Shown here one piece after another: positions 1,997-36,105 of a stretch of DNA of 44,853 nucleotides. Origin of the DNA: a virus (Duplodnaviria; Heunggongvirae; Uroviricota; Caudoviricetes); the IMG/VR virus record IMGVR_UViG_3300045988_031537, one strand, 5' to 3'. Each line of letters begins with the position of its first letter. Position 1 is the first letter of the stretch. The translations under genes were made by a program, and so were the position numbers. The notes under the pieces are model-generated. The model did not search any database, was not told the origin of the DNA, and saw only the letters and a program-made list of their open reading frames with translations.

Positions 1997-2356
1997 TTGC
2001 TCCAGTTTGCCCGTTGGAACTTCATAACCCGCCACAAACGGCGGGAGTTTGACAGTATCGCCGACGGGCATAAAGCCGCGCTAATTGCTATGGGGGTTAT
2101 GCAAGACGCGCCGGAAGCAACGCAGGACACAGGGCCGGAATGCCCCCCTGAGCTATTAACCACCTTCGAGAAGTACAGGGAAATCAAATTCACCCGCCGA
2201 GTGGACGATGATGGCATCAAGATGTACCCGCGCGAACAGTTAAGATGGTCGGATTTAGTGGCATACAGCACCGTTTCAGGCCAGAATATATGCATGTTTG
2301 AATCTGACATCATCATGAGCTTAGACGCTATTTTCGAGGGTAGAAACGATGGCTGA
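1997..2356 (+). CDS. Probable -1 frameshift extension of the tail chaperone (lambda G-T-like)
   Basis: ORF in the -1 frame relative to 1575-1991, open from 1964, no ATG start with RBS, ends overlapping the tape measure start. Start coordinate is the track's TTG, not a claimed initiation site. Confidence 0.4.
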   Translation: MLQFARWNFITRHKRREFDSIADGHKAALIAMGVMQDAPEATQDTGPECPPELLTTFEKYREIKFTRRVDDDGIKMYPREQLRWSDLVAYSTVSGQNICMFESDIIMSLDAIFEGRNDG

Positions 2357-4688
2357 TGTAGCTAGTTTAGTTGTAAAGGTATCAGAGCAAGGCGCGAAAG
2401 CTACATCGGACCGTCTTGATAATCTCTCCAAGTCGGCAAAAGTAGCGGGGGCAGCCGTAGCTGGACTCGCTTCAATTGTCGCCGCGACAGCGTACAAGGC
2501 CGCACAGGAACTGGTAGACTCCCAACGGCAACTGGACAAGATGTCCGCCAGCCTGAAAACACTAACCGGAAGCACGCAGGGGGCAAGACAGGCGTTAAGC
2601 ATCCTGCAAGACTTCGCGCGCGACACTCCGTATGGCCTTGAACAGGCGGTAGAGGGATTCCGTAAACTGGTGGCTCTCGGCCTTACCCCCTCAGAAGAAG
2701 CGTTGCGCTCCTATGGCAACACTGCCGCTGCTATGGGTAAAGACCTTAATCAGATGATTGAGGCCGTTGCGGACGCCAGTACATTTGAATTTGAGCGCCT
2801 TAAAGAATTCGGCATCAAGGCCAAGCAAAACAAAGACGATGTTGAATTTACATTCCAGGGCACCACTACGGTAGTTAAGAAGAGCGCTGCCGACATCGAG
2901 CAATACCTGCTCAACATTGGTAACGTAAACTTCGCGGGGGCTATGGCGGACCAGGCCAACACACTTAACGGCGCCATCGCCAGTGCCAGCGACTCATGGT
3001 CGCAGTTAAAAATGACACTGGCTACCAGCCTTGATGTTGGCGCTCTTGCGGAGCCTATCCGGTACATCGATGATTTAATCCAGGAACTTAACGCACAGGT
3101 TGCATCCGGTGAACTTGCCGCGGAGATGCGTATGTGGGGTGACATCGCGTCGGAAGTAGGAAGCGCGATAGAGATGTCGTTCGACGCGGCATTTGGTTTT
3201 GTAGGTGACGCGATAAATGGACTGAATGAACTTTGGGATTTTAGCAGTAAAAGTATCACCGACAGCGGCGAACAAACGGCGACAACCATCGCGGAATCAG
3301 CTGCCGATGCGCTCGATTTCATCGCAGAAGAATTTACCGCGATGGAGCGCTTCTTTGAAGATATGGTTAAAGGGGCACAGGACGCTGGCCGGTTGGTGAA
3401 AGCTGCCTTCACACCAGGGGAATCTGTAGACGTAGCAAAAAACATTAACTTCCAGCTAGGGATGGCACTGGATACTCAGCGCGATGTTGCGGACCTGACC
3501 CGTAAAAGTTTCCGCGAACAGGTGGAGGCTCAGCAAAATATTGTCGCGCTTAAACGCGCAGCGTATGACATCGACAAAGAAGCCGCTAAGGAAGAAGGGC
3601 TTAGTAAATTTAAGGTAACTGGTACTGGTGGCGGGCCCGAAGATGATAATGCTGGTGCAAAAGCCTCCAAGAAAGCGGCGGACGCGTTCGAGCGCCAGAA
3701 GAAAGCCGCTGAGGATTTCTACTACCAGTCGATTCATCTCAATGATGACGTATTCCAGAAAATAGAAGCCAACCAGGAACAGCAGCTAACCAAGCTACAG
3801 GAGTTCTATGGTAATCAGCTTCTTAGCGACCAGCAGTACGAAAACGCTAAAACTCAGATTATGCTGGAGGCTGACACCGCACGTCAGGAAGAACTCGCCA
3901 AGCGGGAGAAAGAACGGCAGGAGAAGAACCAGAAAGGCGAGGACTTCATGGCTCAGATTATGGGCCAGAATGCTGCCGAGCTTGAGCTTCTGGAGATTCA
4001 GGAACAACAAAAACTGGACGTTGCTGATAGATACCGTGAACAGAATCTGATTAACGAGGAGCAGTACCAGGCAGCGGTTAACGCGATAAACGACCAGTAC
4101 GCATTGAAACGTGCCAACGCTACCGGTAACGCTTTTGGCATGATGGCGGACAACATTAAGTCATCGCTAGGCGAGGCGTCCTCCGCGTATAAAGCATTCG
4201 CTATCGCTCAGGCCACAATAGCCACATACACATCCGCCATCGAGGCTTATAAATCTGCGTCCGCGATTCCTATTGTTGGTTGGGTGCTTGGTCCTGTGGC
4301 CGCGGCAGCAGCAGTAGCAGCAGGTCTGGCTAACATCGGCAAGATTCGTTCGGCCCGTGAACAGGGTGGTCAGTTATCTGCGGGGCAGGCTTCCACCATC
4401 GCCGAACGCGGTAAACCAGAAGTTATCATGCCTGCTGGTGCATCGCGCGTACGAACTGCGCAGCAGATGAAAGAAATTATGGGGCAAAATGGGTCTTCTT
4501 CTGGCCCATCTAATGTTACCATTGTAAATAACACATCGAGTCAGATTGGCAACGTATCCACTGAGCAAGATGATGAAGGCCGTTTGCGTATCATCATCGA
4601 GGAGCAAGTAGCTGCGTCTTTGCAGAACAGCAACAGTAAGATTAGCAAGGCCCGCAAGGCCACAAGAAACGCGCCTGGTTTCAAGTAA
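2349..4688 (+). CDS. Tail tape measure protein
   Basis: 779 aa, Ala/Gln-rich and predicted helical, C-terminal hydrophobic segment, located between chaperone and distal tail genes. Confidence 0.85.
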   Translation: MADVASLVVKVSEQGAKATSDRLDNLSKSAKVAGAAVAGLASIVAATAYKAAQELVDSQRQLDKMSASLKTLTGSTQGARQALSILQDFARDTPYGLEQAVEGFRKLVALGLTPSEEALRSYGNTAAAMGKDLNQMIEAVADASTFEFERLKEFGIKAKQNKDDVEFTFQGTTTVVKKSAADIEQYLLNIGNVNFAGAMADQANTLNGAIASASDSWSQLKMTLATSLDVGALAEPIRYIDDLIQELNAQVASGELAAEMRMWGDIASEVGSAIEMSFDAAFGFVGDAINGLNELWDFSSKSITDSGEQTATTIAESAADALDFIAEEFTAMERFFEDMVKGAQDAGRLVKAAFTPGESVDVAKNINFQLGMALDTQRDVADLTRKSFREQVEAQQNIVALKRAAYDIDKEAAKEEGLSKFKVTGTGGGPEDDNAGAKASKKAADAFERQKKAAEDFYYQSIHLNDDVFQKIEANQEQQLTKLQEFYGNQLLSDQQYENAKTQIMLEADTARQEELAKREKERQEKNQKGEDFMAQIMGQNAAELELLEIQEQQKLDVADRYREQNLINEEQYQAAVNAINDQYALKRANATGNAFGMMADNIKSSLGEASSAYKAFAIAQATIATYTSAIEAYKSASAIPIVGWVLGPVAAAAAVAAGLANIGKIRSAREQGGQLSAGQASTIAERGKPEVIMPAGASRVRTAQQMKEIMGQNGSSSGPSNVTIVNNTSSQIGNVSTEQDDEGRLRIIIEEQVAASLQNSNSKISKARKATRNAPGFK

Positions 4689-4691
4689 TAA

Positions 4692-4710
4692 TATGGCCCT
4701 TTCGGGCCAT
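4692..4710. terminator. Hairpin between convergent genes (candidate bidirectional terminator)
   Basis: ATGGCCC-TTTCG-GGCCAT inverted repeat just after the tape measure stop. Confidence 0.4.
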
Positions 4711-4713
4711 AAC

Positions 4714-5460
4714 TTACTCGCTGCGTACTTTTCCGTTACATAGCTCCGTGAACTCAGCTATTATCTCGCTGTTGGCCACCATCCACTCACTGGCCCCATC
4801 AAAGTTGCTTAGCTCCGCCGATACGTGTGTGCGGTGAAAGTATCGCTCTAACATACGGCAACGAGCACCATTAGCGTCTTGGTATACACTAAGCACATGG
4901 AACTCAAACGGAGTGGAGCGCTCCAGTTGAGCAAGTCGTTGTTTTAACTTGTTAGTAATACCTATTTTAAGGTATTTACCACATGCAGAAAGAAGTCCGT
5001 AAATGTACCCTGGTTTGTTAGAGTCGTAGCCGTGTCTGGCGCACGACGGACAACCATGCCTGTGCACTAAAATATTATTAACCCCTGTAGCAAACACCCC
5101 GTGGTCATTACATGCGCGTATCGCTTTGGAGATTTTGTTTAGGTACGCGCCTCCTTCAAAACCCACGAACGTATATCGAACATCCGCGGATTTTATTTGC
5201 TCAATAACGGCATCTGTATTCTTGCGGTAGGCAGCCGCCGCGGCTTCTCGACTGCATTTCATACACCCGTGTCCTCCAGAGATGCTACGGGCTATAGCTG
5301 AAAATTCACCGTGGGACGGGCAAATAAGTCTAATCTTGCTAGTCGAGTCAATGTACTCACTACCGTCATAACTTGCGGATATTGTGTACTTCCCGCCGTG
5401 TTTCTTTAAATCTAACTCGACCATTTTCTTCCGTTCTTCCCAACCAATTTTAACGCTCAT
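4714..5460 (-). CDS. Putative homing endonuclease with T5orf172/GIY-YIG-like C-terminal domain and two N-terminal Cys/His repeats
   Basis: C-terminal PGYIYGLL...GKYLKIGITNKLKQRLAQL; N-terminal repeats CPSHGEF...CMKC and CNDHGVF...CPSC; AAGGAGGAG RBS before the start. Antisense to the surrounding tail genes. Confidence 0.55.
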   Translation of the reverse strand: MSVKIGWEERKKMVELDLKKHGGKYTISASYDGSEYIDSTSKIRLICPSHGEFSAIARSISGGHGCMKCSREAAAAAYRKNTDAVIEQIKSADVRYTFVGFEGGAYLNKISKAIRACNDHGVFATGVNNILVHRHGCPSCARHGYDSNKPGYIYGLLSACGKYLKIGITNKLKQRLAQLERSTPFEFHVLSVYQDANGARCRMLERYFHRTHVSAELSNFDGASEWMVANSEIIAEFTELCNGKVRSE

Positions 5461-5593
5461 ACCTACCTCGCTCCTCCTTGTTGTAGTAGCATGCTATTCG
5501 ACGACGCCCTGTTTGGCAACTTAAACGCGGTGACGCTATGCTTCTCACCATGGTAACATTGACCTTAACATCCAATCTATCGAGGTTCTAATA

Positions 5594-6094
5594 ATGGGTG
5601 ACTTATACTTCCCACGTAGCCTTAAGCCAATTGTATCGAAAGGCTACTCGATGACCAGACGTAACAACGTCTGGAGCGTTGATTTAGCCGGTGGCGGGGT
5701 GCGCCAGGGCCGTGACACGTATTACGACGTGTTCCCGATAAGCGTAACCCTGATTACCTCAGCACTAGGGCGGCAGGCGTTTCTGTCGTTCCTTGAGAAA
5801 GTCGATGGTGGTGCTTCAAGTTTCTGGATGGCGCATGACTTCGGCATGGGTATCGAGGATTATCAGGTAACTATCACGTCAACCATCGCAGAGTCCACAG
5901 AAGATGGCATTAACTGGACGATTACTTTCACGGCAACCGCTGAGAAATCGCCGTTCCAGGATGAGGATAACCAGTGCCTTGTCAACAATCTGCCTGATTT
6001 GTATGGCTGCTATGGTGACAGGCTGGGATGTTTCCTTAAAGCCTACGGAACTGCACAATCAACGTTTCCACGAATTTGGGACCCGATGCAATGA
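5594..6094 (+). CDS. Minor tail protein (distal tail, lambda M-like position)
   Basis: First gene after the tape measure region in the tail module; assignment by position only. Confidence 0.45.
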   Translation: MGDLYFPRSLKPIVSKGYSMTRRNNVWSVDLAGGGVRQGRDTYYDVFPISVTLITSALGRQAFLSFLEKVDGGASSFWMAHDFGMGIEDYQVTITSTIAESTEDGINWTITFTATAEKSPFQDEDNQCLVNNLPDLYGCYGDRLGCFLKAYGTAQSTFPRIWDPMQ

Positions 6095-6606
6095 GCCAGG
6101 AATCAGTAGAAGCCGCCTATCGCCGTAAGCTGGCCTCAAATCCCGACGGCGAGATGGACTACATCACGTTGCAAATCAGCCACCCGTTGCTGTCGAAGAC
6201 GTACTATCTTGTTCGAGGGCTACAGGAACTTACGGCAACACTGGAGACAGGCGAAACAATCACGTTCGAGCCAACACCGATGGAAGCGTCGGGAGCCGCT
6301 AACAATAACGACATGGACCAGACGACGACGTTTACACTTCCTGACGTCGGAAATTTACTGGACGATGAACTGGATAATATTCCGATGGATAGTACTGAGT
6401 TGCCGAAGTTCATATTTCGCCGTTATGTCAGCACCGACCTGTCTTACCCGGCAGACGGCCCTGTGGCATACGAGGCGCAGACCATAGCTCAGGACAAGGG
6501 GCGATTCTCCGCTAATTTAGGGACACCTATGCTTAACCAACGAAGCACTGGTATACTCATGACACCTAAAGAGATACCTTTATTACGCGGCCTGTTAATA
6601 ACATGA
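6091..6606 (+). CDS. Minor tail protein (lambda L-like position)
   Basis: ATG at 6091 overlaps the upstream stop (ATGA); synteny only. Confidence 0.45.
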   Translation: MSQESVEAAYRRKLASNPDGEMDYITLQISHPLLSKTYYLVRGLQELTATLETGETITFEPTPMEASGAANNNDMDQTTTFTLPDVGNLLDDELDNIPMDSTELPKFIFRRYVSTDLSYPADGPVAYEAQTIAQDKGRFSANLGTPMLNQRSTGILMTPKEIPLLRGLLIT

Positions 6607-6968
6607 ACATTAACGACTACACGGGAATTCCTTACGACTTTCGCAAACGCAATTGCTGGCATCACGTGCGTATTGTCCGTGCGGATGCCGGGTTAGCCAC
6701 ACCGGCGTTCGACGCTACAAGCCCAACGGCAATTAACGACGCGTTTGACGAAGGGCATCGCAACACGAAGGGGCTTACGAAAATTGATAAGCCTGAGAAC
6801 TTGTGCGCGGTTCTTATGGGTAGGCGTCGCGGCGGCAGAATCGTGTGGCACGCCGGGGTCTACTTTGACGGAATGGTGAGTCATTGCGAGATGGCCTCCC
6901 GTCAGGTACGGCTAGACCGGCTTGTTGACCTGAGCGACCTGTACACGGAGATTGAATTTTGGCGATAA
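6603..6968 (+). CDS. Tail assembly protein with NlpC/P60-like Cys/His motifs (lambda K-like)
   Basis: NCWHH...HAGVY...SHCE pattern; start overlaps the previous stop. Confidence 0.5.
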   Translation: MNINDYTGIPYDFRKRNCWHHVRIVRADAGLATPAFDATSPTAINDAFDEGHRNTKGLTKIDKPENLCAVLMGRRRGGRIVWHAGVYFDGMVSHCEMASRQVRLDRLVDLSDLYTEIEFWR

Positions 6969-9505
6969 TCCTGCACTACACGCGAAATGCCAACGGTGTT
7001 TTCGACCGCACAAAACACGTCGGGATGCCGATGGAGTTTGTCGTTAACCGTATTCCTGACGGCGTGCCTGTGCGCGTCTACCTCGGCGAAATTGGTGATG
7101 ATACAGACGTAACGGACGACTTCGAAGCGCTTAAAGACGAAGACGCGGTGTATCACATAGTAGAAGGAGCTGGTGGGGGTGCGCTTGTAGTAGGTGCGCT
7201 TGTTGCGTTGGTCGTCGTCGCGGCTACGGTTTTACTAACTAAGAAACCGAATCTGGCGGTAACAGCGACAAATAACCAAGCAAAATCCGCTAATAACAGC
7301 CTTACTGACCGCTCCAACAAGCCGCGTCCTTACGAGCGCTCCTATGACATCTGCGGGACTGTGCAGACAATCCCTAATGACCTGATGCAGACGTATAAGG
7401 CGTTCGACAATATCGGGAATTTACTAGAATACTCGTACTATGACGCCGGGCGGGGGCATCTACATATTGAGGCTGATGGGGTCACAGAGGGCGATACCCT
7501 GATAAGTGACATCACAGGCTCCTCTGTTGCCGTGTATGCGCCATATACCTCCCCGAACAACACCACATCTCCGCAGCTACAAATCGGGGACGTCATTGAC
7601 CAGAAACTCTATGTGACATACTCCAACGACGACGTTGACGGTATTGTACTGAAAGCGCCAAACGACATCGGGGCTAACCCAAGCGCCGATGGCACCGCGA
7701 AACGTATTTCAAACACCGGCTACATCTATGACCCGTCGGGTGACTCCGCTTTTTCTGAGTTTCTTAGCGTCGGTGATGTCGCGGTGCTGAGCAACTTTGA
7801 CGTTGCAGGCGTCACTAACCTTAACGGCTCGTTTGAGGTTTTATATGTCGATGACTTCGAAGTAAGACTGGCGGTGAATGGTGCTTCTAATTGGGACGCG
7901 TTAACCAGTGGGCAGACGTATACCTTAACAGAGCGTTCTGATACTTTCATTGGTCCGAGAGACACCTACGACGTATCCCTGACCGACTGGTATTACATGG
8001 TGCGCGGAGAAGTTGACCGGGTGCTTGCTAACGTTTCCGGGCAGAACGGCCTCTACAAATACGACGGTGGTTATAGCCGAGCCAATGTAACCGTAGAACT
8101 CCAGTACCAGATGATCGATTCTCAGCGTAACCCGATTGGTGATATCTACACCGTACAAGGCACCGTTACCGGTAATAGCACGGATTACGTTGGCACGTCT
8201 ATCTACGGGCAATTGCCTACTGCATCGCGTTTCCGCGCCCGTATGCGTCGTATAACGAATTTTGATAAGGACTACGACGGTACCGTAAGCGATGAGATAA
8301 CATTCATCAACCTGTACGGGCAGTCTCTGGACACAACCCCGCACTACGGCAACCGGACAACAGTACATTGCACCCGTAAACAGACACCGCGGGCCGCTAG
8401 TATTGACAACCCTGAACTGCGCATGATTGCGACTGAGATGTGTTACAAATACCTCGGAAATGGGGTATTCGATACGGTAATGACACCTAATACGCAGGCG
8501 GTGCAATCACTAATTCGACTGGCCCGCGACCCGGCGGTAGGTAACTTAGAACTGACAACCGCAAACATGGACAAGTTACTTGCCGTGCAGGAAGAGATTG
8601 AATCCTATTTTGGCAGCGAATTAGCGGGACAATTCTGCTACACGTTCGACGACTACGACACCACGATGCAGGACATCGTTCAGACTATAGCCGAAGCCGT
8701 GTTTTGTACTGCGTACCGTAAAGGTGCAGACATTATGCTGCGTTTCGACCGTCCGGTTGCAGGGCCTGAAATGGTGTTCACCCACCGCAGTAAAACTACC
8801 GGTACAGAGAAATGGACGCGCACATTCAACGATTCTACTACCTACGATAGCCTGTCGTTCTCGTACATCGACCCGGATACAAACGTACAGGAAACTATTT
8901 ATATCCCGGAAGAACTCGGTGCAAACACTGAGGAATACGAATCGAAAGGCGTGCGCAACTATCAGCAGGCGTACTGGCTGGCGTGGCGTCGCTATCAGCG
9001 CAATGCGTTAAGTAAAGTTGTCGTAGAGTTCGAAGCTACCGAAGAGGGGGCACTCGCTACACCGGGCGGCGTAATCAGTGTCGTTAAAGGCTCGCGTATC
9101 GCGCCGCAGGATGGCTATGTTGTTGCCGTTAATGGTCTTACGCTGACACTGTCACAGCCGGTTACGTTTACCCCCGGCGATGACCACTCCATCATCCTCA
9201 AGAAGCGCGATGGCTCCGTGCAGAGTATTTCTGTTATCAAAGGAAACCACGACCGCGAAGTGATTATGCTCTCCGCGCCGGAGGAAGCAATATACACGGG
9301 GAATAGCGCACTAAAAACTGAGTTTTCATTCGGCAACGAAGCAAGGCATAATGCACAGAAGATAGTTGTTTCTTCAATCGACCCGGGCGACGACCGCACG
9401 GTCAAGATTACAGGCTACAACTATGACGACGGATTCTATAAATACGACGGCGTCGCTCCATACGGTAGCGGTTTCTCCGACGGATTCAGCAATGGTTTTA
9501 ATTAA
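6959..9505 (+). CDS. Tail tip / central fibre protein (lambda J-like) with an N-terminal lambda I-like segment
   Basis: 848 aa; FRARMRRITNF resembles the lambda J IRMRRMT motif; N-terminal ~100 aa has a hydrophobic Gly/Ala/Val stretch like lambda gpI. Track start is TTG; the true start may be ATG 7025 or 7031. Confidence 0.65.
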   Translation: MAIILHYTRNANGVFDRTKHVGMPMEFVVNRIPDGVPVRVYLGEIGDDTDVTDDFEALKDEDAVYHIVEGAGGGALVVGALVALVVVAATVLLTKKPNLAVTATNNQAKSANNSLTDRSNKPRPYERSYDICGTVQTIPNDLMQTYKAFDNIGNLLEYSYYDAGRGHLHIEADGVTEGDTLISDITGSSVAVYAPYTSPNNTTSPQLQIGDVIDQKLYVTYSNDDVDGIVLKAPNDIGANPSADGTAKRISNTGYIYDPSGDSAFSEFLSVGDVAVLSNFDVAGVTNLNGSFEVLYVDDFEVRLAVNGASNWDALTSGQTYTLTERSDTFIGPRDTYDVSLTDWYYMVRGEVDRVLANVSGQNGLYKYDGGYSRANVTVELQYQMIDSQRNPIGDIYTVQGTVTGNSTDYVGTSIYGQLPTASRFRARMRRITNFDKDYDGTVSDEITFINLYGQSLDTTPHYGNRTTVHCTRKQTPRAASIDNPELRMIATEMCYKYLGNGVFDTVMTPNTQAVQSLIRLARDPAVGNLELTTANMDKLLAVQEEIESYFGSELAGQFCYTFDDYDTTMQDIVQTIAEAVFCTAYRKGADIMLRFDRPVAGPEMVFTHRSKTTGTEKWTRTFNDSTTYDSLSFSYIDPDTNVQETIYIPEELGANTEEYESKGVRNYQQAYWLAWRRYQRNALSKVVVEFEATEEGALATPGGVISVVKGSRIAPQDGYVVAVNGLTLTLSQPVTFTPGDDHSIILKKRDGSVQSISVIKGNHDREVIMLSAPEEAIYTGNSALKTEFSFGNEARHNAQKIVVSSIDPGDDRTVKITGYNYDDGFYKYDGVAPYGSGFSDGFSNGFN

Positions 9506-9517
9506 AGAGGACTCTAT

Positions 9518-11854
9518 ATGTCAAGCGGATGCGGTGACGTTTTAAGCCTGGCGGATTTACAGACCGCCAAGAAACACCAGATTTTCGAAGCCGAGGTTAT
9601 CACCGGCAAATCCGGCGGTGTTGCAGGTGGCGCCGATATTGATTACGCGACAAATGCCGTTACAGGGCAGACCCAAAAGACGTTACCAGCCGTGTTGCGT
9701 GACGCTGGTTTTTCTCCGGTGTCATGGGACTTTTCCACTGGTGGTACGTTAACCGCTAATGACCGCGACAAAGTGGTGTATGACCCTGTAAGCAAGACGT
9801 GGTACTCGTATACCGGGACTCTGCCGGTTGTTGTCCCCGCATCGTTTAACCCGGTTGGTAACGCTAACTGGAAGCCGCAGACTGACCCGGATTTGCGCAA
9901 TGATTTATCCAGCACAGACAATGCGACATTAGGTGATGCCATGGTCGGCGTCCGACAACCATTTACCGACGCTGTCGGCAGGACGCAACACGATAAAAAT
10001 AGAGAAGTAGTTTCCGTTCTGGACTTCTATTTAGGTACTGACCCTGATTACACAAACGCCCTTAACCGAGCGCTTACAGCTAGTAACGGGGTGCTTGTAC
10101 CGCAAGGGGAGTATAGTACGTCGCTACTCTCCCACCCGACATGCTCTCTATTCGGAACAGGGGGTGGGGTTTTAAAACAATCAAACGATTCTGGAAACCA
10201 CTTAATCTTTGATAAACCTGCAGGAGGGCTACTTAGCACCCTGAGTATTGTAGGAAATAAGGCAACGGACTCCACACAGGGTCAGCAGGTTTCCTTCGCC
10301 GGTGGGCGGGACGTTACTATTAAAGGTATTGATTTTAAAAATGCAAAGGGAACTGGATTTAGTTTAATAGCATACCCTAGTGATGGGGGTCCGTCTGGAT
10401 ACATTGTAAGCGGCATACGGGGCGACTACTCCGGGTATGCTACAAATAAAAAAGCGGGGTGCGTGCTGTTTGAGTCCGCAAGTAATACTATAATCAACGA
10501 TGTTATCGCCCGAAACTACCCCCAATTCGGGGCGGTTGAGTTGAAAACAGATGCTAAATGTAATGTTGTTAGTGGCGTCATTGGGCAAAGCTGTCAGCAC
10601 GTTGTTTATAATGGCACCGAGACGACCAATGCCCCTAGCAGTAATATTATCAGTAATGTTGTTGCTAATAACGCTAAGTATGCCGCTGTGGCCGCCGGCA
10701 AGGGTTCAGGTAATCTGGTGACAAATGTTGTAGCTGATTACTCCTCCTCCGAGGCCACGCAAGCACACGGCGTTACATTACAAGGCAACTATAATGCCGC
10801 TGATAATATTCTAATGGTTGGGTGCAGCGGAACTAATAGTTTAGGGCAAACGCAAACCGCGACTTCTATTAGGTTTTTAGACAGAGCTAGTAATAACTAC
10901 GCATCGGTTTTCCCTATGTATAGTGCTTCCGGGGTTGTTACACTAGAGACAGGGACTACCCGTAACTTTGTGGAAGTAAAGCACCCTGGACCCAAGAACA
11001 GTCTTCTTAGTTCACTATCTACTATAACCGGGGTCTCTAGCATTGATGGTACTACCACCAGTAACGTGGTACACGCCCCCGCTATAGGACAATACATAGG
11101 GTCCATGTCCGGTAGGTTTGAGTGGTTCACTAAGTATATAGATACTTCTGCATTGCCTTTTGTGACAGCTGATAAATTCAGACTAATTTCCGATGGGGCT
11201 ACATCTTTGGCTATTGGTGGAGGTACGACCTCTCAGATAAAATTACTCACATCTGATGGTACTTATCGAACTATTGCTCTGGTTGAGGGTAATTTACGCT
11301 TAGCCTCTGACGCATCGGCGTATATTCAAATAGCCCCGACGGCTATTACACCATCCAGTGCAAACACCGTCGCTATCGGGTCGGCAAGTCGCGCTTTGTC
11401 CGGCGGATTCACTCAAACAGCGTTTACGGTTACGTCTGACGAGAGAACCAAGACACTACCCCTGGAATTAACTGACGCTATGTTAGACGCTTGGGCTGAA
11501 GTTAATTTAGTTCAATATAAGTACCTGGATAGGGTTGCAGAGAAGGGGGAGGATGCAGCTAGGTGGCACTTTGGAGTAGTAGCCCAACGAGCAATTGAGG
11601 CGTTTACCCGGCACGGGTTGGACGCGACTAAGTACGGTTTCCTGTGCTACGATAAGTGGGAAGCGTCTCCGGAAATTATTGATGAGGAATCTGGGGAAGT
11701 ATTAACAAAAGCTACGGCGGCAGGGGAGCGGTATGGTATTCGTTATGATGAGGTATTGATATTAGAGGCTGCGTTACAGCGACGTAAAGCAGCTCAGTTA
11801 GAGAAAAGGATTATAGCGCTTGAGACATTAGTGGCTACCCTGACAAACAGTTAA
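9518..11854 (+). CDS. Tailspike / tail fibre with beta-helix-like middle and C-terminal intramolecular chaperone-like domain
   Basis: AAGAGGA RBS; Gly/Asn/Thr/Ser-rich central repeats typical of pectate-lyase-like depolymerases; C-terminus (...WHFGVVAQRAIEAF...YGIRYDEVLILEA...) resembles the self-cleaving chaperone domain of endosialidase-type spikes. Confidence 0.7.
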   Translation: MSSGCGDVLSLADLQTAKKHQIFEAEVITGKSGGVAGGADIDYATNAVTGQTQKTLPAVLRDAGFSPVSWDFSTGGTLTANDRDKVVYDPVSKTWYSYTGTLPVVVPASFNPVGNANWKPQTDPDLRNDLSSTDNATLGDAMVGVRQPFTDAVGRTQHDKNREVVSVLDFYLGTDPDYTNALNRALTASNGVLVPQGEYSTSLLSHPTCSLFGTGGGVLKQSNDSGNHLIFDKPAGGLLSTLSIVGNKATDSTQGQQVSFAGGRDVTIKGIDFKNAKGTGFSLIAYPSDGGPSGYIVSGIRGDYSGYATNKKAGCVLFESASNTIINDVIARNYPQFGAVELKTDAKCNVVSGVIGQSCQHVVYNGTETTNAPSSNIISNVVANNAKYAAVAAGKGSGNLVTNVVADYSSSEATQAHGVTLQGNYNAADNILMVGCSGTNSLGQTQTATSIRFLDRASNNYASVFPMYSASGVVTLETGTTRNFVEVKHPGPKNSLLSSLSTITGVSSIDGTTTSNVVHAPAIGQYIGSMSGRFEWFTKYIDTSALPFVTADKFRLISDGATSLAIGGGTTSQIKLLTSDGTYRTIALVEGNLRLASDASAYIQIAPTAITPSSANTVAIGSASRALSGGFTQTAFTVTSDERTKTLPLELTDAMLDAWAEVNLVQYKYLDRVAEKGEDAARWHFGVVAQRAIEAFTRHGLDATKYGFLCYDKWEASPEIIDEESGEVLTKATAAGERYGIRYDEVLILEAALQRRKAAQLEKRIIALETLVATLTNS

Positions 11855-11860
11855 ATAAAC

Positions 11861-11888
11861 AAGGCCCCAAACGGGGCCTTTTCTCTAC
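11861..11888 (+). terminator. Rho-independent terminator
   Basis: AAGGCCCC-AAAC-GGGGCCTT followed by TTCTCT. Confidence 0.6.
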
Positions 11889-12022
11889 TCTTCTGATAGC
11901 TTCTCCAGAACAAACGCCAGTTGCGCATTAGCTGCGTCTCTTTGCTGCCGTAGTCGTAGAACCTCTTCTTCAAGTTCCTTGATACGTTTTTGCAATGCTG
12001 GAATCGGGGCTATGATGTTCAT
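11885..12022 (-). CDS. Small hypothetical coiled-coil protein (45 aa)
   Basis: ATG overlaps the upstream stop (ATGA); product MNIIAPIPALQKRIKELEEEVLRLRQQRDAANAQLAFVLEKLSEE. Below the track length cut-off. Confidence 0.3.
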   Translation of the reverse strand: MNIIAPIPALQKRIKELEEEVLRLRQQRDAANAQLAFVLEKLSEE

Positions 12023-14225: not shown

Positions 14226-14353
14226 TCCGGCACCCACAGATAAATTGCGATGAACATACCCAATACGGCTACCATCATGCCGTATTGCCCCTCGTGACAG
14301 TAGACACCGGCGGCGAATCCCGCCAGTACCGCGATAATCAGTTTACTTAGCAT
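14222..14353 (-). CDS. Small hydrophobic peptide (43 aa)
   Basis: MLSKLIIAVLAGFAAGVYCHEGQYGMMVAVLGMFIAIYLWVPE; ATG overlaps the 3' end of the polymerase gene. Confidence 0.3.
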   Translation of the reverse strand: MLSKLIIAVLAGFAAGVYCHEGQYGMMVAVLGMFIAIYLWVPE

Positions 14354-17300
14354 AGCGCTTCATCTCCGCACCTTCCGCTACAAGAGGGAACCCCCCCGCC
14401 CACTCTGGCAACGCACACATTAATTTTTCCAGTTCAGGCACCGTGTAATCCGGCGTATCTGGAGTTTCACATACCAGTTCATCGTGTACCGAAAGCACGA
14501 TGGGATACCCGCCACCCTCAACATTAATCATCGCATATGCGAGTAAATCACGGCACAGCGCCTGAACAATGTTTTCGCAGGCTTTGCCGCCGTGTGTGTA
14601 CAGGGTAGTCCATTGGCGGGTTAACTGGTTTTCACCTTGGTACTTGATTCGCACATTCGTGTTTACCCGTCCGTCTTCGTCTGTTTCTTTTGTCACGCTA
14701 ACGCCGATTCCTGGATACGAGAGGATACGGCCCGACGGCAACTCCATACACAACCACCAACCGGGAACCTTCCTACCGGATGAATCGGTTTCTACTGTTC
14801 TCCAGATTCGGATAGCGCGCTCGCCATTCTTGCGCAGATGCGCCCCCGCCCAAAATTCACGACCCGGATTTCTTACAGCGGCTAAAATACCGTCTTTGAG
14901 GTCGCGCCAGAACGCTACTGTTTCCGGGTGTGACTCGCGCCACATACGCTTGATTGCATCGCAGGTGCGCCACACTTTCTTGTCCAGAATATACGACGGT
15001 CGGTCGTCCTTTTCACCTGGATGCGGGGGGTGCTTGGCTTCCTGGATGCGCGCCCACTCGTACCCGCGTGCAGTGGCCGACCAGATATGGTCCGGGAATG
15101 TACCGTCCATTGTTTTTGCCATCTCAATAAGGTCAAGACCTAGGTTTTTAGCAAACGTAACGAACGCTCCAACGCCGCCCTCGTAGCCGAGGCCAAGCTC
15201 GCAGTTATGCGCCACAAGAAAGCCAGAGTCTGAGGCTATAAGAAAACGGTTGCCGTCTTCCACATCAATCAGGTCGTACACCGGCTCGCAGTAGGTTAAT
15301 TTCCCGCTCAAGTTCAGCAATGCGGGCAACGGCTGCATCATACTTTCGTTGAAGCTCGGGTATTTGCCGTCTGTTTCGGCAGTTTTCAGAACGGCTGACA
15401 AACCGAATGTTTCCAGGTTCGTAGTTACCGTCTGTGTCGATTCTATCCATTTCGAGGTTCGGGTCATCCCAGCCTTCCAGAGTTTGAACATATCTAAGAA
15501 AAGACCTTTTATCAGTCCTCCACTGGTCGAATACCGTGATGCCTCTTGCCCCATAGTTTTTATAACCCTTATCCCTGGGGCTTGTTGTTCGCGTGATCGC
15601 CGCTGACAGCCGGTTGAGTAATCGCGTTCTGTGTGCATCATCCGGCATTGCGTCTTCGTAGCAGAAATACTGTTTACGATATTTTTTTGTTGCTTCAAGG
15701 GCGCAGCGGTTGCATTGAGTGGTTTTACCCGCTCTGACGTTGTCATAATAGACCCGCCCCGGCATCTCTCCGCAATCACATTGGACGAGTAGTTGTCTTT
15801 GGCCTTGTCGTTTTGGCAACTCGCGCAGGATAACCAAGCGTCCATACCTCTCTCCAGGGCTAGGCCCATCATATATCTGTTTGAAGCGAGTTGCTTTGCC
15901 TGCTTCCAGGAATGCGCCAAGATTTTGTGATCTTCGGTCATTAGCACCCCGTCCACATTTATTACCGGTTTCCACCCCATAAGGTGCGCGCCTTTTGTAT
16001 TCACCCATTTTTCACCGCTCCATACTTTATCTGTTGATGTAACCGCCATAATATCCTTAAATCCGCCATCGGTCAAAACCTGGGTATGACGGTGAAGGCA
16101 CGCTTTACCAATCTGGCGCAAGTCTTTACGTTCTTTCTTAATGTCATCAGGGTCCATACCGAACATCTTGCCTGCGGTTACACAGTAAATATCCAGTCCG
16201 GCGCGGAACGTATCGAGCGCGGTTTCTTCACCTGCCAGCCACGCAAGCCCGCGGCCTTCAACGTTAGAGTAATCGGCGACGACAAACTTATGCCCGGCTT
16301 CCGGTATTATGCAGCTACGCACAGTAGATGCCGTTAGTTTGGCTACATCAAAACGGCGATGGGCGCGGCCCTTAAGTAACGCTGAAATGCCTTTATCCAG
16401 CTCATCATCATGATAGTAACCGCGTGCCAGGTTCTGCGGCTGGAAGCCTTTACCTGCCCATCGCAGAGTACGTTTTGCCCCACCGTACTGCAAGCAACCG
16501 CGACGGCGGTCGTCCGAAGAGCGGCCCCGCAGCAGCGGGTTATATTTCGTGGACGCCGTGGACGCGGCCCCGAGGCGCATTTCGATAATCGTGCGTGCGT
16601 CGTCCGGTAAATCATCGTCGGCCAGCAGGTCATTCAGCGTTGACTTCTGCACGTTGTGGATTCGGTGCGCAGGGGCAAGTTCGCGCAGAATCGGCAGAAA
16701 GTCTTTACCAGTAAGCGAGCCGCCGTATTTGCGTTGGGCCTCTTCCTGTAACTGCGCTTTGTGTTTCTCCACGGCTTCAATCGCGGCTTCTGCCAGTGCC
16801 ACGTCAACCTTAAACCCGCGGTCGTTGATTAACTGGTCCAGTTCCAGTACACGGTCCTCGAACTCCGAGTTACCCCAACGTGGCAGCTTATGGAATACCT
16901 CACGCATCGCGGTAATATCGCTCACGGCGTACTTGATGAACAACGCCCATTCATCAGGGTGCGTCTCGGCGGTGTAGCGTCTGATTTTGTAGTTCTTCGG
17001 TGTCGGTTTAGAGAAACGCTGAATCAGCGCCTTGCCACGCTTATCCTTCGCATTGTCAGCAGACACGCCCAGCACTTCGCACAATGAGTCAAGTGAACCC
17101 GGCAATGCATGACGAAACGCCCAAATCATCGTATCAATGGTGTTGCGTACCGGAATATCAAAGCCCCAGCAGTGCTTCATTATGAGCCTGTCGAACATTG
17201 AGCCGTTGTGCCACACCATCTTAATGCGACTGTTAGGCTTAACCAGACGACGTAACGCGCGGTGCAAATCGCCCGGCATGTCACTGCCGTCGGTGCAATC

Positions 17301-17441
17301 CCACACCTGCACAGGCTCGTCGTCAAAAGCGTATGTACAGATAAGCACTTCGGTAGTTGGATGCTCGGCGTAAGCGTAGGAGCCGACTTTCTTTAAATCG
17401 GCTTCGGAGAATGTTTCAAAGTCTAAGAACAGGTAACTCAT
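14343..17441 (-). CDS. Family A DNA polymerase (3'-5' exonuclease plus polymerase domains) interrupted by an intein
   Basis: Exo motif DFETFS; polymerase motif A ADYSNVEGR, motif B RQIGKA/CELGLGYEGG split by the intein, motif C VHDELV. Confidence 0.85.
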   Translation of the reverse strand: MSYLFLDFETFSEADLKKVGSYAYAEHPTTEVLICTYAFDDEPVQVWDCTDGSDMPGDLHRALRRLVKPNSRIKMVWHNGSMFDRLIMKHCWGFDIPVRNTIDTMIWAFRHALPGSLDSLCEVLGVSADNAKDKRGKALIQRFSKPTPKNYKIRRYTAETHPDEWALFIKYAVSDITAMREVFHKLPRWGNSEFEDRVLELDQLINDRGFKVDVALAEAAIEAVEKHKAQLQEEAQRKYGGSLTGKDFLPILRELAPAHRIHNVQKSTLNDLLADDDLPDDARTIIEMRLGAASTASTKYNPLLRGRSSDDRRRGCLQYGGAKRTLRWAGKGFQPQNLARGYYHDDELDKGISALLKGRAHRRFDVAKLTASTVRSCIIPEAGHKFVVADYSNVEGRGLAWLAGEETALDTFRAGLDIYCVTAGKMFGMDPDDIKKERKDLRQIGKACLHRHTQVLTDGGFKDIMAVTSTDKVWSGEKWVNTKGAHLMGWKPVINVDGVLMTEDHKILAHSWKQAKQLASNRYMMGLALERGMDAWLSCASCQNDKAKDNYSSNVIAERCRGGSIMTTSERVKPLNATAAPLKQQKNIVNSISATKTQCRMMHTERDYSTGCQRRSREQQAPGIRVIKTMGQEASRYSTSGGLIKGLFLDMFKLWKAGMTRTSKWIESTQTVTTNLETFGLSAVLKTAETDGKYPSFNESMMQPLPALLNLSGKLTYCEPVYDLIDVEDGNRFLIASDSGFLVAHNCELGLGYEGGVGAFVTFAKNLGLDLIEMAKTMDGTFPDHIWSATARGYEWARIQEAKHPPHPGEKDDRPSYILDKKVWRTCDAIKRMWRESHPETVAFWRDLKDGILAAVRNPGREFWAGAHLRKNGERAIRIWRTVETDSSGRKVPGWWLCMELPSGRILSYPGIGVSVTKETDEDGRVNTNVRIKYQGENQLTRQWTTLYTHGGKACENIVQALCRDLLAYAMINVEGGGYPIVLSVHDELVCETPDTPDYTVPELEKLMCALPEWAGGFPLVAEGAEMKRYAK
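15204..16100 (-). mobile_element. Intein (299 aa) inserted in polymerase motif B
   Basis: Starts CLHRHTQVLTDGG (block A), has TEDHKILA (block B, TxxH), VYDLIDVEDGNRFLIA (block F) and ends LVAHN followed by Cys+1; codons checked at both junctions. Confidence 0.7.
15265..16008 (-). CDS. HNH-family homing endonuclease encoded inside the intein in a different reading frame
   Basis: Cys cluster CDCG...CNRC, AP2-like GYKNYGARGITVFDQW, HNH-like MDRIDTDGNYEPGNIRFVSRSENCRN; frame is -1 relative to the polymerase. Confidence 0.6.
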   Translation of the reverse strand: MGEYKRRAPYGVETGNKCGRGANDRRSQNLGAFLEAGKATRFKQIYDGPSPGERYGRLVILRELPKRQGQRQLLVQCDCGEMPGRVYYDNVRAGKTTQCNRCALEATKKYRKQYFCYEDAMPDDAHRTRLLNRLSAAITRTTSPRDKGYKNYGARGITVFDQWRTDKRSFLRYVQTLEGWDDPNLEMDRIDTDGNYEPGNIRFVSRSENCRNRRQIPELQRKYDAAVARIAELEREINLLRAGVRPD

Positions 17442-27584: not shown

Positions 27585-27849
27585 GTTATTCTGGTTCGGC
27601 GGTATGCTGGCAATCGGAGGCACATCGCTGTTTAATGTGTATCACCCCAGCGTTGACGACGGGCTATTTGGTCGGGTGCTCTATATCCTGACCGCTATTG
27701 TCTGCGCTGCCGGGGGCATTCACCTGTTACAGGGCAGCATGTCGCCCACGTTGCCTGAGACATTAATCACATTAGTTGCGCTGCGTCAGATTCGACAGGC
27801 GTGGCTGTCATACGGAGGACATAAGCGTGTCTCGAAACATTTCAGATAA
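27577..27849 (+). CDS. Membrane protein (second holin or antiholin candidate)
   Basis: ATG overlaps holin stop; two hydrophobic segments. Confidence 0.4.
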   Translation: MNELFWFGGMLAIGGTSLFNVYHPSVDDGLFGRVLYILTAIVCAAGGIHLLQGSMSPTLPETLITLVALRQIRQAWLSYGGHKRVSKHFR

Positions 27850-28342
27850 TGAACTTAGCCGTGACTATGTTCGTAGCGTTTTAGATTACAACCCTGACAC
27901 GGGGTTATTCACGTGGCTTAAGACGGTTAGTTCAAAAGCCCCTAAAGGGACTGTGCCAGACGGGAGAGACCCGGACGGGTATAAAGTAATCATGCTCAAA
28001 GGTAAATACCTACGGCAACACAGGCTTGCATGGTTCTATATAACAGGAGAGTGGCCCAGCGGGCAGATAGACCACAGGAACGGGGTAAGAGACGATAATA
28101 GGTTTTGTAACCTGAGAGAATGTGACTCGCAGGACAACAACCGCAACCGTGGGTTATCGCGCAACAACACCAGCGGAGTATCAGGCGTCCATAGACAGCA
28201 AGGGAAATGGATGGTGAGAATCCGTTTGCAAAAAGGTGTGCGCAAGTTTTTCGGTTACTTCGATGACCTTGAGTTCGCTGAGTTAGTAGCTAGCGAAGCC
28301 CGAGATAAATACCACAAGGAGTTCTCTTTATGCGCTCGATGA
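27827..28342 (+). CDS. HNH-AP2 homing endonuclease
   Basis: GTG start after GGAGGA; IDHRNGVRDDNRFCNLRECDSQDN HNH motif plus AP2-like GVSGVHRQQGKWMVRIRLQKGVRKFFGYFD. Confidence 0.65.
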   Translation: MSRNISDNELSRDYVRSVLDYNPDTGLFTWLKTVSSKAPKGTVPDGRDPDGYKVIMLKGKYLRQHRLAWFYITGEWPSGQIDHRNGVRDDNRFCNLRECDSQDNNRNRGLSRNNTSGVSGVHRQQGKWMVRIRLQKGVRKFFGYFDDLEFAELVASEARDKYHKEFSLCAR

Positions 28343-28815
28343 GTGACAACGGCCTCAAGTTTACTGCGGCTTGGGAAGATTTCCGCGGGACCGCCTACCG
28401 CGCGACACCTTCGGAAAAATACTTAACCATAGGCTACGGAAGCTATGGCCCTCATGTGTATGAAGGTAAGACCATCACCCCTGGCCAAGGCCTCCTGTTA
28501 CTGAATCGCGATATGGCTAAGGCCGTAGCTGCGGTTGATGCGGCAGCACACCACTCCCTGACACAGGCGCAGTTCGACGCTGTGTGTGACCTGGTCTATA
28601 ACGCGGGTGCCGGTGTGATTGCGGCTACTACCGGAACCGGTAAGGCTCTGCGTTCTGGTGATATTGCGACACTGCGGGCTAAGCTGGCGCTGTTCATCAA
28701 CCAGAACGGCAAACCATTACTCGGTCTGCGTCGCCGTACCGCCGGGCGTCTTGCGCTGTTCGACGGTAAGCCGTGGCAGGAGGCGGAGGCTATCGGGCGC
28801 GCGGTGAAAGGTTGA
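28330..28815 (+). CDS. Endolysin, phage lysozyme (glycoside hydrolase family 24-like)
   Basis: AAWEDFRGTAYRATP...LTIGYG catalytic region typical of lambda R / T4 E lysozymes. Confidence 0.75.
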   Translation: MRSMSDNGLKFTAAWEDFRGTAYRATPSEKYLTIGYGSYGPHVYEGKTITPGQGLLLLNRDMAKAVAAVDAAAHHSLTQAQFDAVCDLVYNAGAGVIAATTGTGKALRSGDIATLRAKLALFINQNGKPLLGLRRRTAGRLALFDGKPWQEAEAIGRAVKG

Positions 28816-35411: not shown

Positions 35412-35535
35412 AGTATATCTAGTAGCTAGCTTTGGTCGGTGAACTACTAAAAATAGAGAAAGAATATAACCCCATGAAGGTATGCCTATCTCTGGCATCG
35501 ACCAATCTTCATGGGGTTTTCTTATAGGGTTTAAT

Positions 35536-36105
35536 ATGGGAATTGTTTTTGGTGTGGGTATTAACGATGTTTCACCAATAAGTTGCGGAGGGGTGCATAT
35601 AGCGTCCTACGCCGTATGGAAGAACATGTTAAAGAGGTGCTACGACAAGAAATGGCAGCAAAGAAACAGAACTTATATAGGTTGCCGCGTGTCGGACGAT
35701 TGGTTGGTGTTCAGTAATTTCAAGGTCTGGTTTGATGATTTTTATGTACCTGGGTGGCAGATAGATAAGGATTTACTTAACCCGGGAAATAAGGTTTACG
35801 ATGCTTCTAACTGTGTTTTCATCCCTAAATCCCTCAATACTTTCCTAACAGCCCACGACGCTCTTCGAGGCGAACACCCACTCGGCGTACATTTCCATAA
35901 ACAAAAGAAAAGATTCATCGCTCAAGTATCCGTGGATGGCGTATCTGAACAAATAGGCGCTTACGAAACCGCTCAAGAGGCACACGTAGCATGGTTTCAT
36001 AGAAAAATTGAATTAGCATATGAATACAAAGGTCTTTGCGATAGCATAGACCCACGCCTTTTCGAAGGCGTCTTACGTAAGATTAACTCAATGAAAGAGG
36101 TTTAG
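35536..36105 (+). CDS. HNH-AP2-like homing endonuclease, possibly degenerate
   Basis: AP2-like GVHFHKQKKRFIAQVSVDGVSEQIGAYETAQEAHVAW; HNH-like GWQIDKDLLNPGNKVYDASNCVFIPKSLN with Lys where His is expected; preceded by a 12-bp-stem hairpin at 35468-35517. Confidence 0.5.
   Translation: MGIVFGVGINDVSPISCGGVHIASYAVWKNMLKRCYDKKWQQRNRTYIGCRVSDDWLVFSNFKVWFDDFYVPGWQIDKDLLNPGNKVYDASNCVFIPKSLNTFLTAHDALRGEHPLGVHFHKQKKRFIAQVSVDGVSEQIGAYETAQEAHVAWFHRKIELAYEYKGLCDSIDPRLFEGVLRKINSMKEV

Follow-up and report, generated by a model that had tools for sequence, protein, structure and literature searches.

The window analyzed here, that is, the whole stretch of 44,853 nt deposited as IMG/VR virus record IMGVR_UViG_3300045988_031537, represents an E. 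coli phage of the genus Kagunavirus (Guernseyvirinae). Among deposited genomes, that of phage vB_EcoS_fFiEco02 (hereafter fFiEco02) is nearest, with 92.6% identity across the aligning 86% of the window. The element under study is a minus-strand open reading frame (ORF) at 4714..5460, which starts with ATG and encodes 248 aa. It lies antisense between two structural genes. The upstream neighbour is the tape measure protein (TMP) ORF (2349..4688, plus strand, 779 aa, TAA stop at 4686-4688), which matches Pfam TMP_3 with 35.8 bits and whose counterpart is annotated as tape measure in all relatives. Downstream follows a plus-strand tail gene of 166 aa with its ATG at 5594, so that the gap from the TMP stop to the tail-gene start measures 905 nt. 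A sequence-only reading of this DNA, made by a model, had described a 248-aa minus-strand gene with a strong ribosome-binding site (RBS) in a gap of about 900 bp, flanked by a hairpin; the coordinates of the gene were confirmed, and the hairpin is present at 4692-4711. The features of the locus are listed in Table 1.

Table 1. Features at the TMP/tail junction, in coordinates of the window.
Feature	Position	Strand	Basis
Inserted cassette (terminator, endonuclease ORF, RBS, upstream region)	4689..5593	-	alignment of occupied and empty junctions; missing in empty-site relatives
Putative T5orf172/MUG113 nuclease domain, GIY-YIG fold, aa 150-240 (Y154, K165-IGITN-170, R175, E205, E225)	4741..5013	-	
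Zn-ribbon repeat 2, approximately aa 85-146 (C117, H120, C137, C140)	5023..5208	-	CapR Pfam match, invariant columns
Zn-ribbon repeat 1, putative DNA-binding module, approximately aa 17-75 (C47, H50, C66, C69)	5236..5412	-	invariant Cys/Gly columns
RBS of the endonuclease gene, AAGGAGGAG (complement of 5472-5480), and a second GAGG (complement of 5467-5470)	5467..5480	-	read from sequence
Sigma-70-like promoter candidate for the endonuclease gene, TTGCCA-17-TAGCAT	5491..5519	-	weak consensus match, 9/12 positions
Hairpin TATGGCCC-TTTC-GGGCCATA, 8-bp stem and tetraloop, between two convergent stops	4692..4711	-	
Putative left co-conversion tract, 3' end of the TMP gene moving with the cassette	4617..4688	+	identical in the window and fFiEco02
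First tail-gene codons co-varying with the cassette; codon 2 GGT Gly in carriers, AGC Ser in empty junctions	5594..5604	+	
Cassette right end, GAGGTTCTAATAATG	5582..5596	+	anchored manual comparison, 12/15 against the native junction GGGGTTTAAATAATG

According to our analysis, two putative Zn-ribbon DNA-binding modules make up the N-terminal part of the protein, and a divergent GIY-YIG (T5orf172) nuclease domain, in which the conserved Tyr, Arg and Glu are present, makes up the C-terminal part. Profile searches returned endonuclease families, as the sequence-only reading had anticipated. In Pfam, MUG113 (PF13455) matches aa 164-230 with 35.3 bits (cut-off 22.3), T5orf172 (PF10544) matches aa 152-237 with 27.6 bits (cut-off 20) over profile positions 2-96 of 101, and the CapR homology domain (PF21817) matches aa 95-141, that is repeat 2, with 25.7 bits (cut-off 24.2). 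PHROG 681 ("endonuclease") covers aa 17-244 with E = 2.5e-48. Because of these matches, 4714-5460 is not a chance ORF. The canonical GIY-YIG model (PF01541) stays below its threshold (E = 0.072; 13.8 bits, cut-off 22.6) and covers aa 151-178 only, which places the nuclease domain in the divergent T5orf172 branch. The C-terminal GIY-YIG-like motif noticed earlier thus stands as a MUG113/T5orf172 match above the cut-offs, and not as a canonical Pfam GIY-YIG domain. Pfam matches to DUF4379, DUF723 and the L37ae zinc-ribbon are weak, those to DUF4379 and DUF723 being sub-threshold. The NCBIfam search gave nothing relevant, only ribosomal protein L37ae zinc-ribbon noise, and in the PDB the sequence search returned nothing but ribosomal Zn-ribbon matches without significance (E >= 0.09). 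PADLOC returned a single partial match to the candidate defence family PDC-S57 (E = 2e-6), restricted to aa 151-197, the first 47 residues of the nuclease domain; we do not read it as a sign of a defence system. Within the window, tblastn found no paralogue of the protein.

A search of 5.8 billion proteins yielded 33 homologues, 29 of which were aligned. Invariant among these 29 are C47, G65, C66 and C69 in repeat 1, C117, G136, C137, P138 and C140 in repeat 2, and G167, I168, E205, G222 and E225 in the nuclease domain, while Y154, K165, I166, T169, N170, R175 and H120 are conserved in at least 90%. The duplicated N-terminal Cys/His repeats of the sequence-only reading are therefore borne out as C47/H50...C66/C69 and C117/H120...C137/C140, which are invariant or nearly so. 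The Zn-ribbon unit is about 55 residues long, occurs in 2-4 copies across family members, and folds in the predicted structure of repeat 1 into a beta-hairpin followed by a helix. Homologues bear precomputed matches to PF05265, PF14311 and PF21817. The 98%-identity cluster to which the protein belongs holds 37 member sequences from public read assemblies.

In the predicted structure, the nuclease domain has the GIY-YIG alpha/beta fold. Fold comparison with known members of this group gave scores of 6.5 for both Slx1 and At-HIGLE, 6.2 for a second Slx1 entry (7cq2), 5.7 for EF2693, 4.9 for both PD-T4-3 and the catalytic domain of I-TevI, 4.4 for UvrC, 4.2 for Eco29kI and 3.8 for T4 EndoII. A Foldseek search against predicted viral structures (BFVD) produced 222 matches at E <= 0.001, and the named neighbours are mostly T5orf172, CapR-homology, treble-clef zinc-finger, GIY-YIG or (Hef-like) homing endonuclease proteins. 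An hhalign comparison of the family alignment with the catalytic domain of I-TevI produced no alignment (probability 0.2%).

In order to establish the state of the junction in related phages, the window was compared with its relatives. Only 3 of the 145 flank-matching phage records span the insert, namely fFiEco02, its RefSeq copy, and vB_Ec_DUEC01 (hereafter DUEC01). The same three records were recovered by tblastn of the protein at 98.8-99.2% identity, and the 800 other matching records are all below 60%. A scan of IMG/VR added one further carrier, contig UViG_3300010279_000003, whose protein is 100% identical. Besides the window, the known genomes with a near-identical cassette thus number three (fFiEco02, DUEC01 and the IMG/VR contig). 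The four carrier genomes, including the window, come from Finland, Egypt, a metagenome and the present record, and in each of them the ORF is full-length with all conserved residues. In K1H, fPoEco01, UTEC10, Golestan and BCH953P1 the junction is empty, and the TMP stop overlaps the tail-gene start as AAATAATGAGC (TAATG). A length excess of 113 bp in BCH953P1 was considered as a possible scar of the cassette and rejected, the junction being of the ordinary empty type. A more distant set comprises 498 Guernseyvirinae-like records, for the most part from Salmonella phages (Jerseyvirus-type) with about 70% identity to the query (fPoEco01); the Salmonella-phage rows in a spread sample of 60 of them are all single-piece, with no extra length at the junction. 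As the junction is uninterrupted across these relatives, the empty state is ancestral and the 905 bp at 4689-5593 are an insertion. The comparison asked for by the sequence-only reading therefore came out in its favour, in that the gene is not present at this position in all relatives and the TMP-tail junction is uninterrupted in most of them.

The same junction is occupied by a different gene in other isolates. VIPECOTH07 (record L004, 2490-3218) and XY1 (record L007) carry a 216-aa minus-strand gene in a 729-bp cassette at the identical insertion point. The encoded protein matches PHROG 953 ("HNH endonuclease") with E = 8.7e-64 and shows a weak AP2 match; its nuclease family is unrelated to T5orf172. 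This HNH cassette was found in seven records, which represent five phages (VIPECOTH07, XY1, fEg-Eco19, SHAK7693 and Esher4). Its flanks are recoded separately, with CCT GGC TTT AAG at the TMP end and a tail gene that begins MSSLKF..., and it supplies an AGGAG Shine-Dalgarno before the tail-gene ATG. Both cassettes lie antisense, and both have TAATAAYAT and a GGCCC-N4-GGGCC hairpin beside the TMP stop, the 14-nt hairpin core being an exact reverse complement between them. The shared left end may reflect common ancestry, in which one endonuclease gene replaced another inside an existing insert, or convergence of the terminators.

Comparison of the carriers revealed that the cassette is much more alike than its surroundings. 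Pairwise comparison of the 905-bp cassettes of the window, fFiEco02 and DUEC01 gave 6, 7 and 9 mismatches, all of them within the ORF (99.0-99.3% identity), and the ratios of synonymous to nonsynonymous substitutions among the three GenBank carriers are 3:3, 5:2 and 6:3. Between the window and DUEC01, identity is 88% genome-wide, and the 500-nt bins holding the cassette (4501-5500) reach 98-99.2%, the highest of all bins. The low-mismatch segment that the window has in common with the other three carriers extends over about 4617-5604 and contains 6, 7 and 2 mismatches, the last value referring to the IMG/VR contig. This segment of about 990 bp at >=99% identity is set in backgrounds of 75-96%. 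On the left, no mismatch to DUEC01 or to the IMG/VR contig occurs to the right of 4616 within the tract, and divergence begins from 4616 leftward, with 10 mismatches in 58 nt at the left bound in the contig. On the right, DUEC01 and the contig are about 10% divergent from 5605/5608 onward. The TMP genes of the carriers are 77% (fFiEco02), 75% (DUEC01) and 96% (IMG/VR contig) identical to that of the window; the TMP background is TH07-like at 4383-4558 in the window and fPoEco01-like at 4479-4548 in fFiEco02. As for the downstream tail gene, the window and fFiEco02 have a short version (166 aa), and DUEC01 and the contig have a long one of about 465 aa. Since backgrounds and breakpoints differ from carrier to carrier, several separate recombination events carried the same cassette. 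This identity island supports homing with short co-conversion tracts, of which it would be the expected signature.

The short form of the first distal tail gene occupies 5594-6094 (plus strand, 166 aa, PHROG 384). The long form of about 462-472 aa has an additional C-terminal domain of about 300 aa (PHROG 11600; PHROG 5939, "tail protein") and is found at 3175-4572 of record L002, 2489-3877 of L005, 2488-3906 of L006 and 3219-4619 of L007. Short and long forms each occur with and without either cassette, and the polymorphism hence assorts independently of the state of the junction.

The edges of the insertion show that both flanking genes remain intact. The last four sense codons of the TMP gene (4674-4685) read CCT GGT TTC AAG, compared with CCG GGG TTT AAA in empty-site phages, so that every wobble position is changed; they are preceded by 57 nt identical to UTEC10 and Golestan. 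If four differences were placed randomly among the last 23 codons, the chance of filling the final four would be 1 in 8855 by our calculation. As only wobble positions are affected, the C-terminus of the TMP (...APGFK) is preserved in carriers, and the tail-gene protein of carriers differs by S2G and V13I only. The likeness of the cassette right end to the native junction (Table 1) requires a 3-nt gap in the left copy and was treated as suggestive, and the repeat search around the cassette did not recover flanking direct repeats. The comparison suggests that the native junction was partly duplicated at the first insertion of the cassette. The right end appears to provide the tail gene with a GAGG Shine-Dalgarno, located 8 nt ahead of the ATG, which would make up for the loss of translational coupling to the TMP gene. 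GC content of the cassette is 47.0%, compared with 50.7% for the genome.

Candidate transcription signals were found at both ends of the endonuclease gene. A pattern scan rates the hairpin at 4692-4711 as terminator-like on the minus strand only (8 pairs, tail TTATTACTTG). The RNA fold of the minus strand, with its GAAA tetraloop and a lengthened outer stem, has an energy of -22.2 kcal/mol, compared with -13.9 kcal/mol for the plus strand. The hairpin looks like an intrinsic terminator of the endonuclease transcript. As the plus strand has no T-run at this place, late tail transcription probably reads through. The upstream region of the cassette contains 5 promoter-like matches, compared with 1.8 +/- 1.4 in shuffles. 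A second sigma-70-like match at 5513-5542 is directed to the tail gene, and neither this nor the match on the minus strand is individually significant. The 133-bp upstream region has no second copy within the window.

The gene belongs to a class of phage endonucleases described by Barth et al. (2023, PMC10448857), and GenBank already contains this exact gene, annotated as a "hypothetical protein". N-terminal CapR/DUF723/DUF4379 Zn-finger repeats and a C-terminal T5orf172 domain characterize the class, which was defined in ICP1 and further phages (Netter, 2021, PMC8096241; PMC10448857). Homing endonuclease genes with T5orf172 and CapR/DUF723 domains cluster near TMP and essential genes and mark boundaries of exchange, and classes of endonucleases replace one another at cognate positions of the tail operon (Barth et al., 2023, PMC10448857). 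Like the gene of the window, the ICP1-type genes are free-standing, variably present and located beside TMP or essential genes; the ICP1-type genes are further described at the boundaries of high-identity exchange blocks. The window protein differs in that it is at most about 30-39% identical to T5orf172/Zn-finger members outside its own clade, and its Zn ligands are arranged as CxxH...CxxC, whereas those of CapR, whose Zn-finger binds DNA through four Cys residues (PMC8096241), are arranged as CxxC...CxC. The phage itself is a Guernseyvirinae siphovirus, and the main text of Barth et al. mentions neither Kagunavirus nor Guernseyvirinae (PMC10448857).

Among the literature examined, Odn (ICP1 Gp88) is the sole family member for which double-strand cleavage is reported, and this cleavage depends on a conserved Glu (PMC8263062). 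Odn has the T5orf172 catalytic domain in common with the window protein; it differs by a RepA_N DNA-binding domain from the satellite PLE and by its role, which is defence against the satellite and not homing. The T4 Seg proteins (SegA-G) and I-TevI share the fold and the expected mechanism. Their nuclease domain is N-terminal, whereas it is C-terminal in the window protein, which furthermore does not reach the canonical Pfam GIY-YIG model, has no sequence alignment with I-TevI and lies in no intron. The link to Hef of phage U5 ("Hef-like"), which may be a relative with experimental proof, consists of the UniProt name of one structural neighbour and a secondary citation only. The closest counterparts are the orthologues FE2_028 of fFiEco02 (QNO11589.1, 98.8% protein identity, deposited as "hypothetical protein" with a GIY-YIG_SF similarity note) and XOE93248.1 of DUEC01 (99.2% protein identity, deposited as "hypothetical protein"). 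Both occupy the same junction in the same orientation, and the TMP and tail genes that flank them differ from those of the window. Both entries could be renamed as putative T5orf172/GIY-YIG homing endonuclease.

Two homologues from more distant phages were also found. The Salmonella phage CF-SP1 (Swiduovirus; record L011, 3749-4630) encodes a 39%-identical homologue with three Zn-ribbon units. Its gene is placed antisense, with a TMP-like gene of 796 aa on one side, whose stop is abutted by a hairpin, and the next tail gene on the other. Across genera, this endonuclease family seems to target the TMP/tail junction recurrently. In an unrelated phage, represented by the 44.5-kb ENA contig ctg82150 (record L013, 5001-5900), another 39% homologue is antisense within a block of head, connector and tail genes. 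From these positions, antisense placement within structural operons looks typical for the endonuclease clade.

Taken together, we posit that 4714-5460 is very probably a free-standing T5orf172 (divergent GIY-YIG) homing endonuclease gene, carried in a self-contained 905-bp cassette that sits antisense at the TMP/tail overlap. The sequence-only reading had proposed a free-standing homing endonuclease, and support for it comes from the sporadic occurrence at one precise locus, the intact flanking genes and a cassette that is more alike than its flanks, with homing as the process that these patterns imply. Nuclease activity, target site, transcription signals and present-day mobility are what we infer from the sequences. 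Several points weigh against this interpretation. Homing is deduced from comparative genomics. The protein does not reach the threshold of the canonical Pfam GIY-YIG model (E = 0.072), and the equation of R175 and E225 with R27 and E75 of I-TevI is drawn from fold and family conservation. The promoter matches for the gene are weak. The 6-9 substitutions in the cassette are too few to demonstrate purifying selection on the ORF, and the recoded flanks could be polymorphisms of the donor that hitch-hiked with the cassette and not immunity changes.

It is also conceivable that the protein has been domesticated and is kept for the benefit of the phage, either as a weapon against other phages or satellites, as Odn is, or as a regulator of the late tail genes, as is CapR of PLE. 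The same domain family has been co-opted in both ways (PMC8263062; PMC8096241), the antisense position in a late operon is one where a DNA-binding protein could affect read-through, and the weak PADLOC match to PDC-S57 (E = 2e-6, aa 151-197) points in the same direction. We nevertheless regard domestication as unlikely. The nuclease-type residues are intact, whereas CapR is a DNA-binding domain only; the gene is missing in the great majority of otherwise similar phages; and a sharply bounded, near-identical cassette in diverged backgrounds fits selfish spread and not a conserved beneficial function. Marker exclusion of competitors would share the molecular mechanism of homing in any case. Still less probable, in our view, is a recently arrived relic whose ORF looks intact because it is too young to have decayed and which no longer cuts or moves. 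The life-cycle model of homing endonucleases predicts such stages, and the substitutions among carriers are few and without clear synonymous bias. A relic is at odds with a full-length ORF with all conserved residues in four independent genomes, with the 37 member sequences of the 98%-identity cluster, and with the carrier-specific flank breakpoints, which imply several transfers.

Presence and absence alone give no polarity, and at 47.0% the cassette is only slightly poorer in GC than the genome (50.7%). Both would be compatible with a gene that Kagunavirus had from the start and that most lineages lost by precise deletion, nothing having been inserted. We give this scenario hardly any credence, as the overlap is uninterrupted in Kagunavirus lineages with different TMP types, and the sampled Jerseyvirus-type records are colinear as well. 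Repeated deletions would each have to recreate the exact TAATG overlap. The identity of the cassette (>=99%) lies far above that of the flanks (75-96%), and other isolates carry the different HNH cassette at the same point.

For the homing endonuclease favoured here, we propose the following course of events. In a mixed infection with an empty-site relative, the two N-terminal Zn-ribbon modules would bind the conserved junction (...GCGCCGGGGTTTAAATAATGAGCGAC...), and the C-terminal GIY-YIG-fold domain would cut nearby. Cleavage is predicted on the empty allele, within a few tens of bp of ...GGGGTTTAAATAATGAGC.... The break would then be repaired from the cassette-bearing genome, whereby the cassette and tens to hundreds of flanking bp, and occasionally much more, would be copied. 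Carriers would be immune, because the insert splits the site and the flanks are recoded.

Copying on a larger scale may be visible in the comparison of the window with fFiEco02 (record L009). Identity is about 77% across the TMP gene left of about position 4500, rises to 97-100% over about 4560-12000, and is 82-93% beyond. This high-identity block of about 7.4 kb holds the cassette, all distal tail genes and the tailspike gene (9518-11854), and its left edge is situated 130-140 nt before the cassette. At the right edge no endonuclease gene was found, and the pattern was observed in this one genome pair only. The block contains the host-range determinant, and its left edge appears to be marked by the cassette, which echoes the boundaries of Barth et al. 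(PMC10448857). More speculatively, the TMP/tail junction might be a shared landing pad, at which T5orf172 and HNH cassettes interchange via the double stop and the GGCCC-N4-GGGCC terminator, and from which breaks drive the transfer of the distal tail genes and tailspike as a segment of about 7.4 kb. We offer this idea tentatively and consider it rather doubtful; if true, the endonuclease would be an engine of host-range exchange besides being a passenger.

The cassette is a clean, well-bounded T5orf172-type element in a coliphage genus that is used for phage therapy (K1-specific kagunaviruses and those of uropathogenic E. coli). The locus offers occupied, empty and alternatively occupied alleles, with breakpoints mapped within a few nucleotides. 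It is therefore convenient for questions that concern the whole class, such as DNA cleavage, target and homing, and the exchange of tailspikes (host range) via breaks beside the tail module.

The window contains further endonuclease genes, and those named alongside the junction gene in the sequence-only reading proved to be real, namely an HNH_3 gene (27776..28342), a PHROG 953 HNH gene (35482..36105) and an intein-like insertion in the DNA polymerase. The first of these (plus strand) is free-standing, matches Pfam with 1.2e-12 and PHROG 99 with 1.9e-62, and overlaps the start of the ORF at 28330-28815. Synteny with fFiEco02 and DUEC01 identifies its surroundings as the holin/endolysin lysis cassette, in which an "HNH homing endonuclease" separates holin from endolysin in DUEC01 and is missing in fFiEco02. 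The HNH gene at 35482-36105 (plus strand) matches PHROG 953 with E = 3.3e-79 and has no Pfam match. Its protein is 35% identical to the HNH protein at the junction of VIPECOTH07 and XY1, which means that both families invading the junction have relatives in this genome. No RNA family of Rfam was found anywhere in the window.

The DNA polymerase ORF (14343-17441, minus strand, 1032 aa) contains an insertion of 294 aa (residues 449-742; 15216-16097) that is missing in fFiEco02 and DUEC01. The insertion begins with CLHRH..., holds TEDHKIL and ends with ...VAHN followed by Cys, which is an intein signature. A nested ORF in another frame (15265-16008, minus strand, 247 aa) matches PHROG 374 ("HNH endonuclease") with E = 1.1e-46, and the polymerase frame stays open through about 250 nondescript codons across it. 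In Pfam, neither frame of the insertion matched an intein or HNH model. The insertion has the appearance of an intein on which an HNH gene is overprinted, out of frame. Matches to this segment were obtained in 165 records, mostly of Salmonella phages, with 95-99% identity in 74 and 90-95% in 82 of them. As the segment is >=90% identical while the Salmonella phages are only about 70% identical at the TMP/tail junction, mobility between genera is implied.

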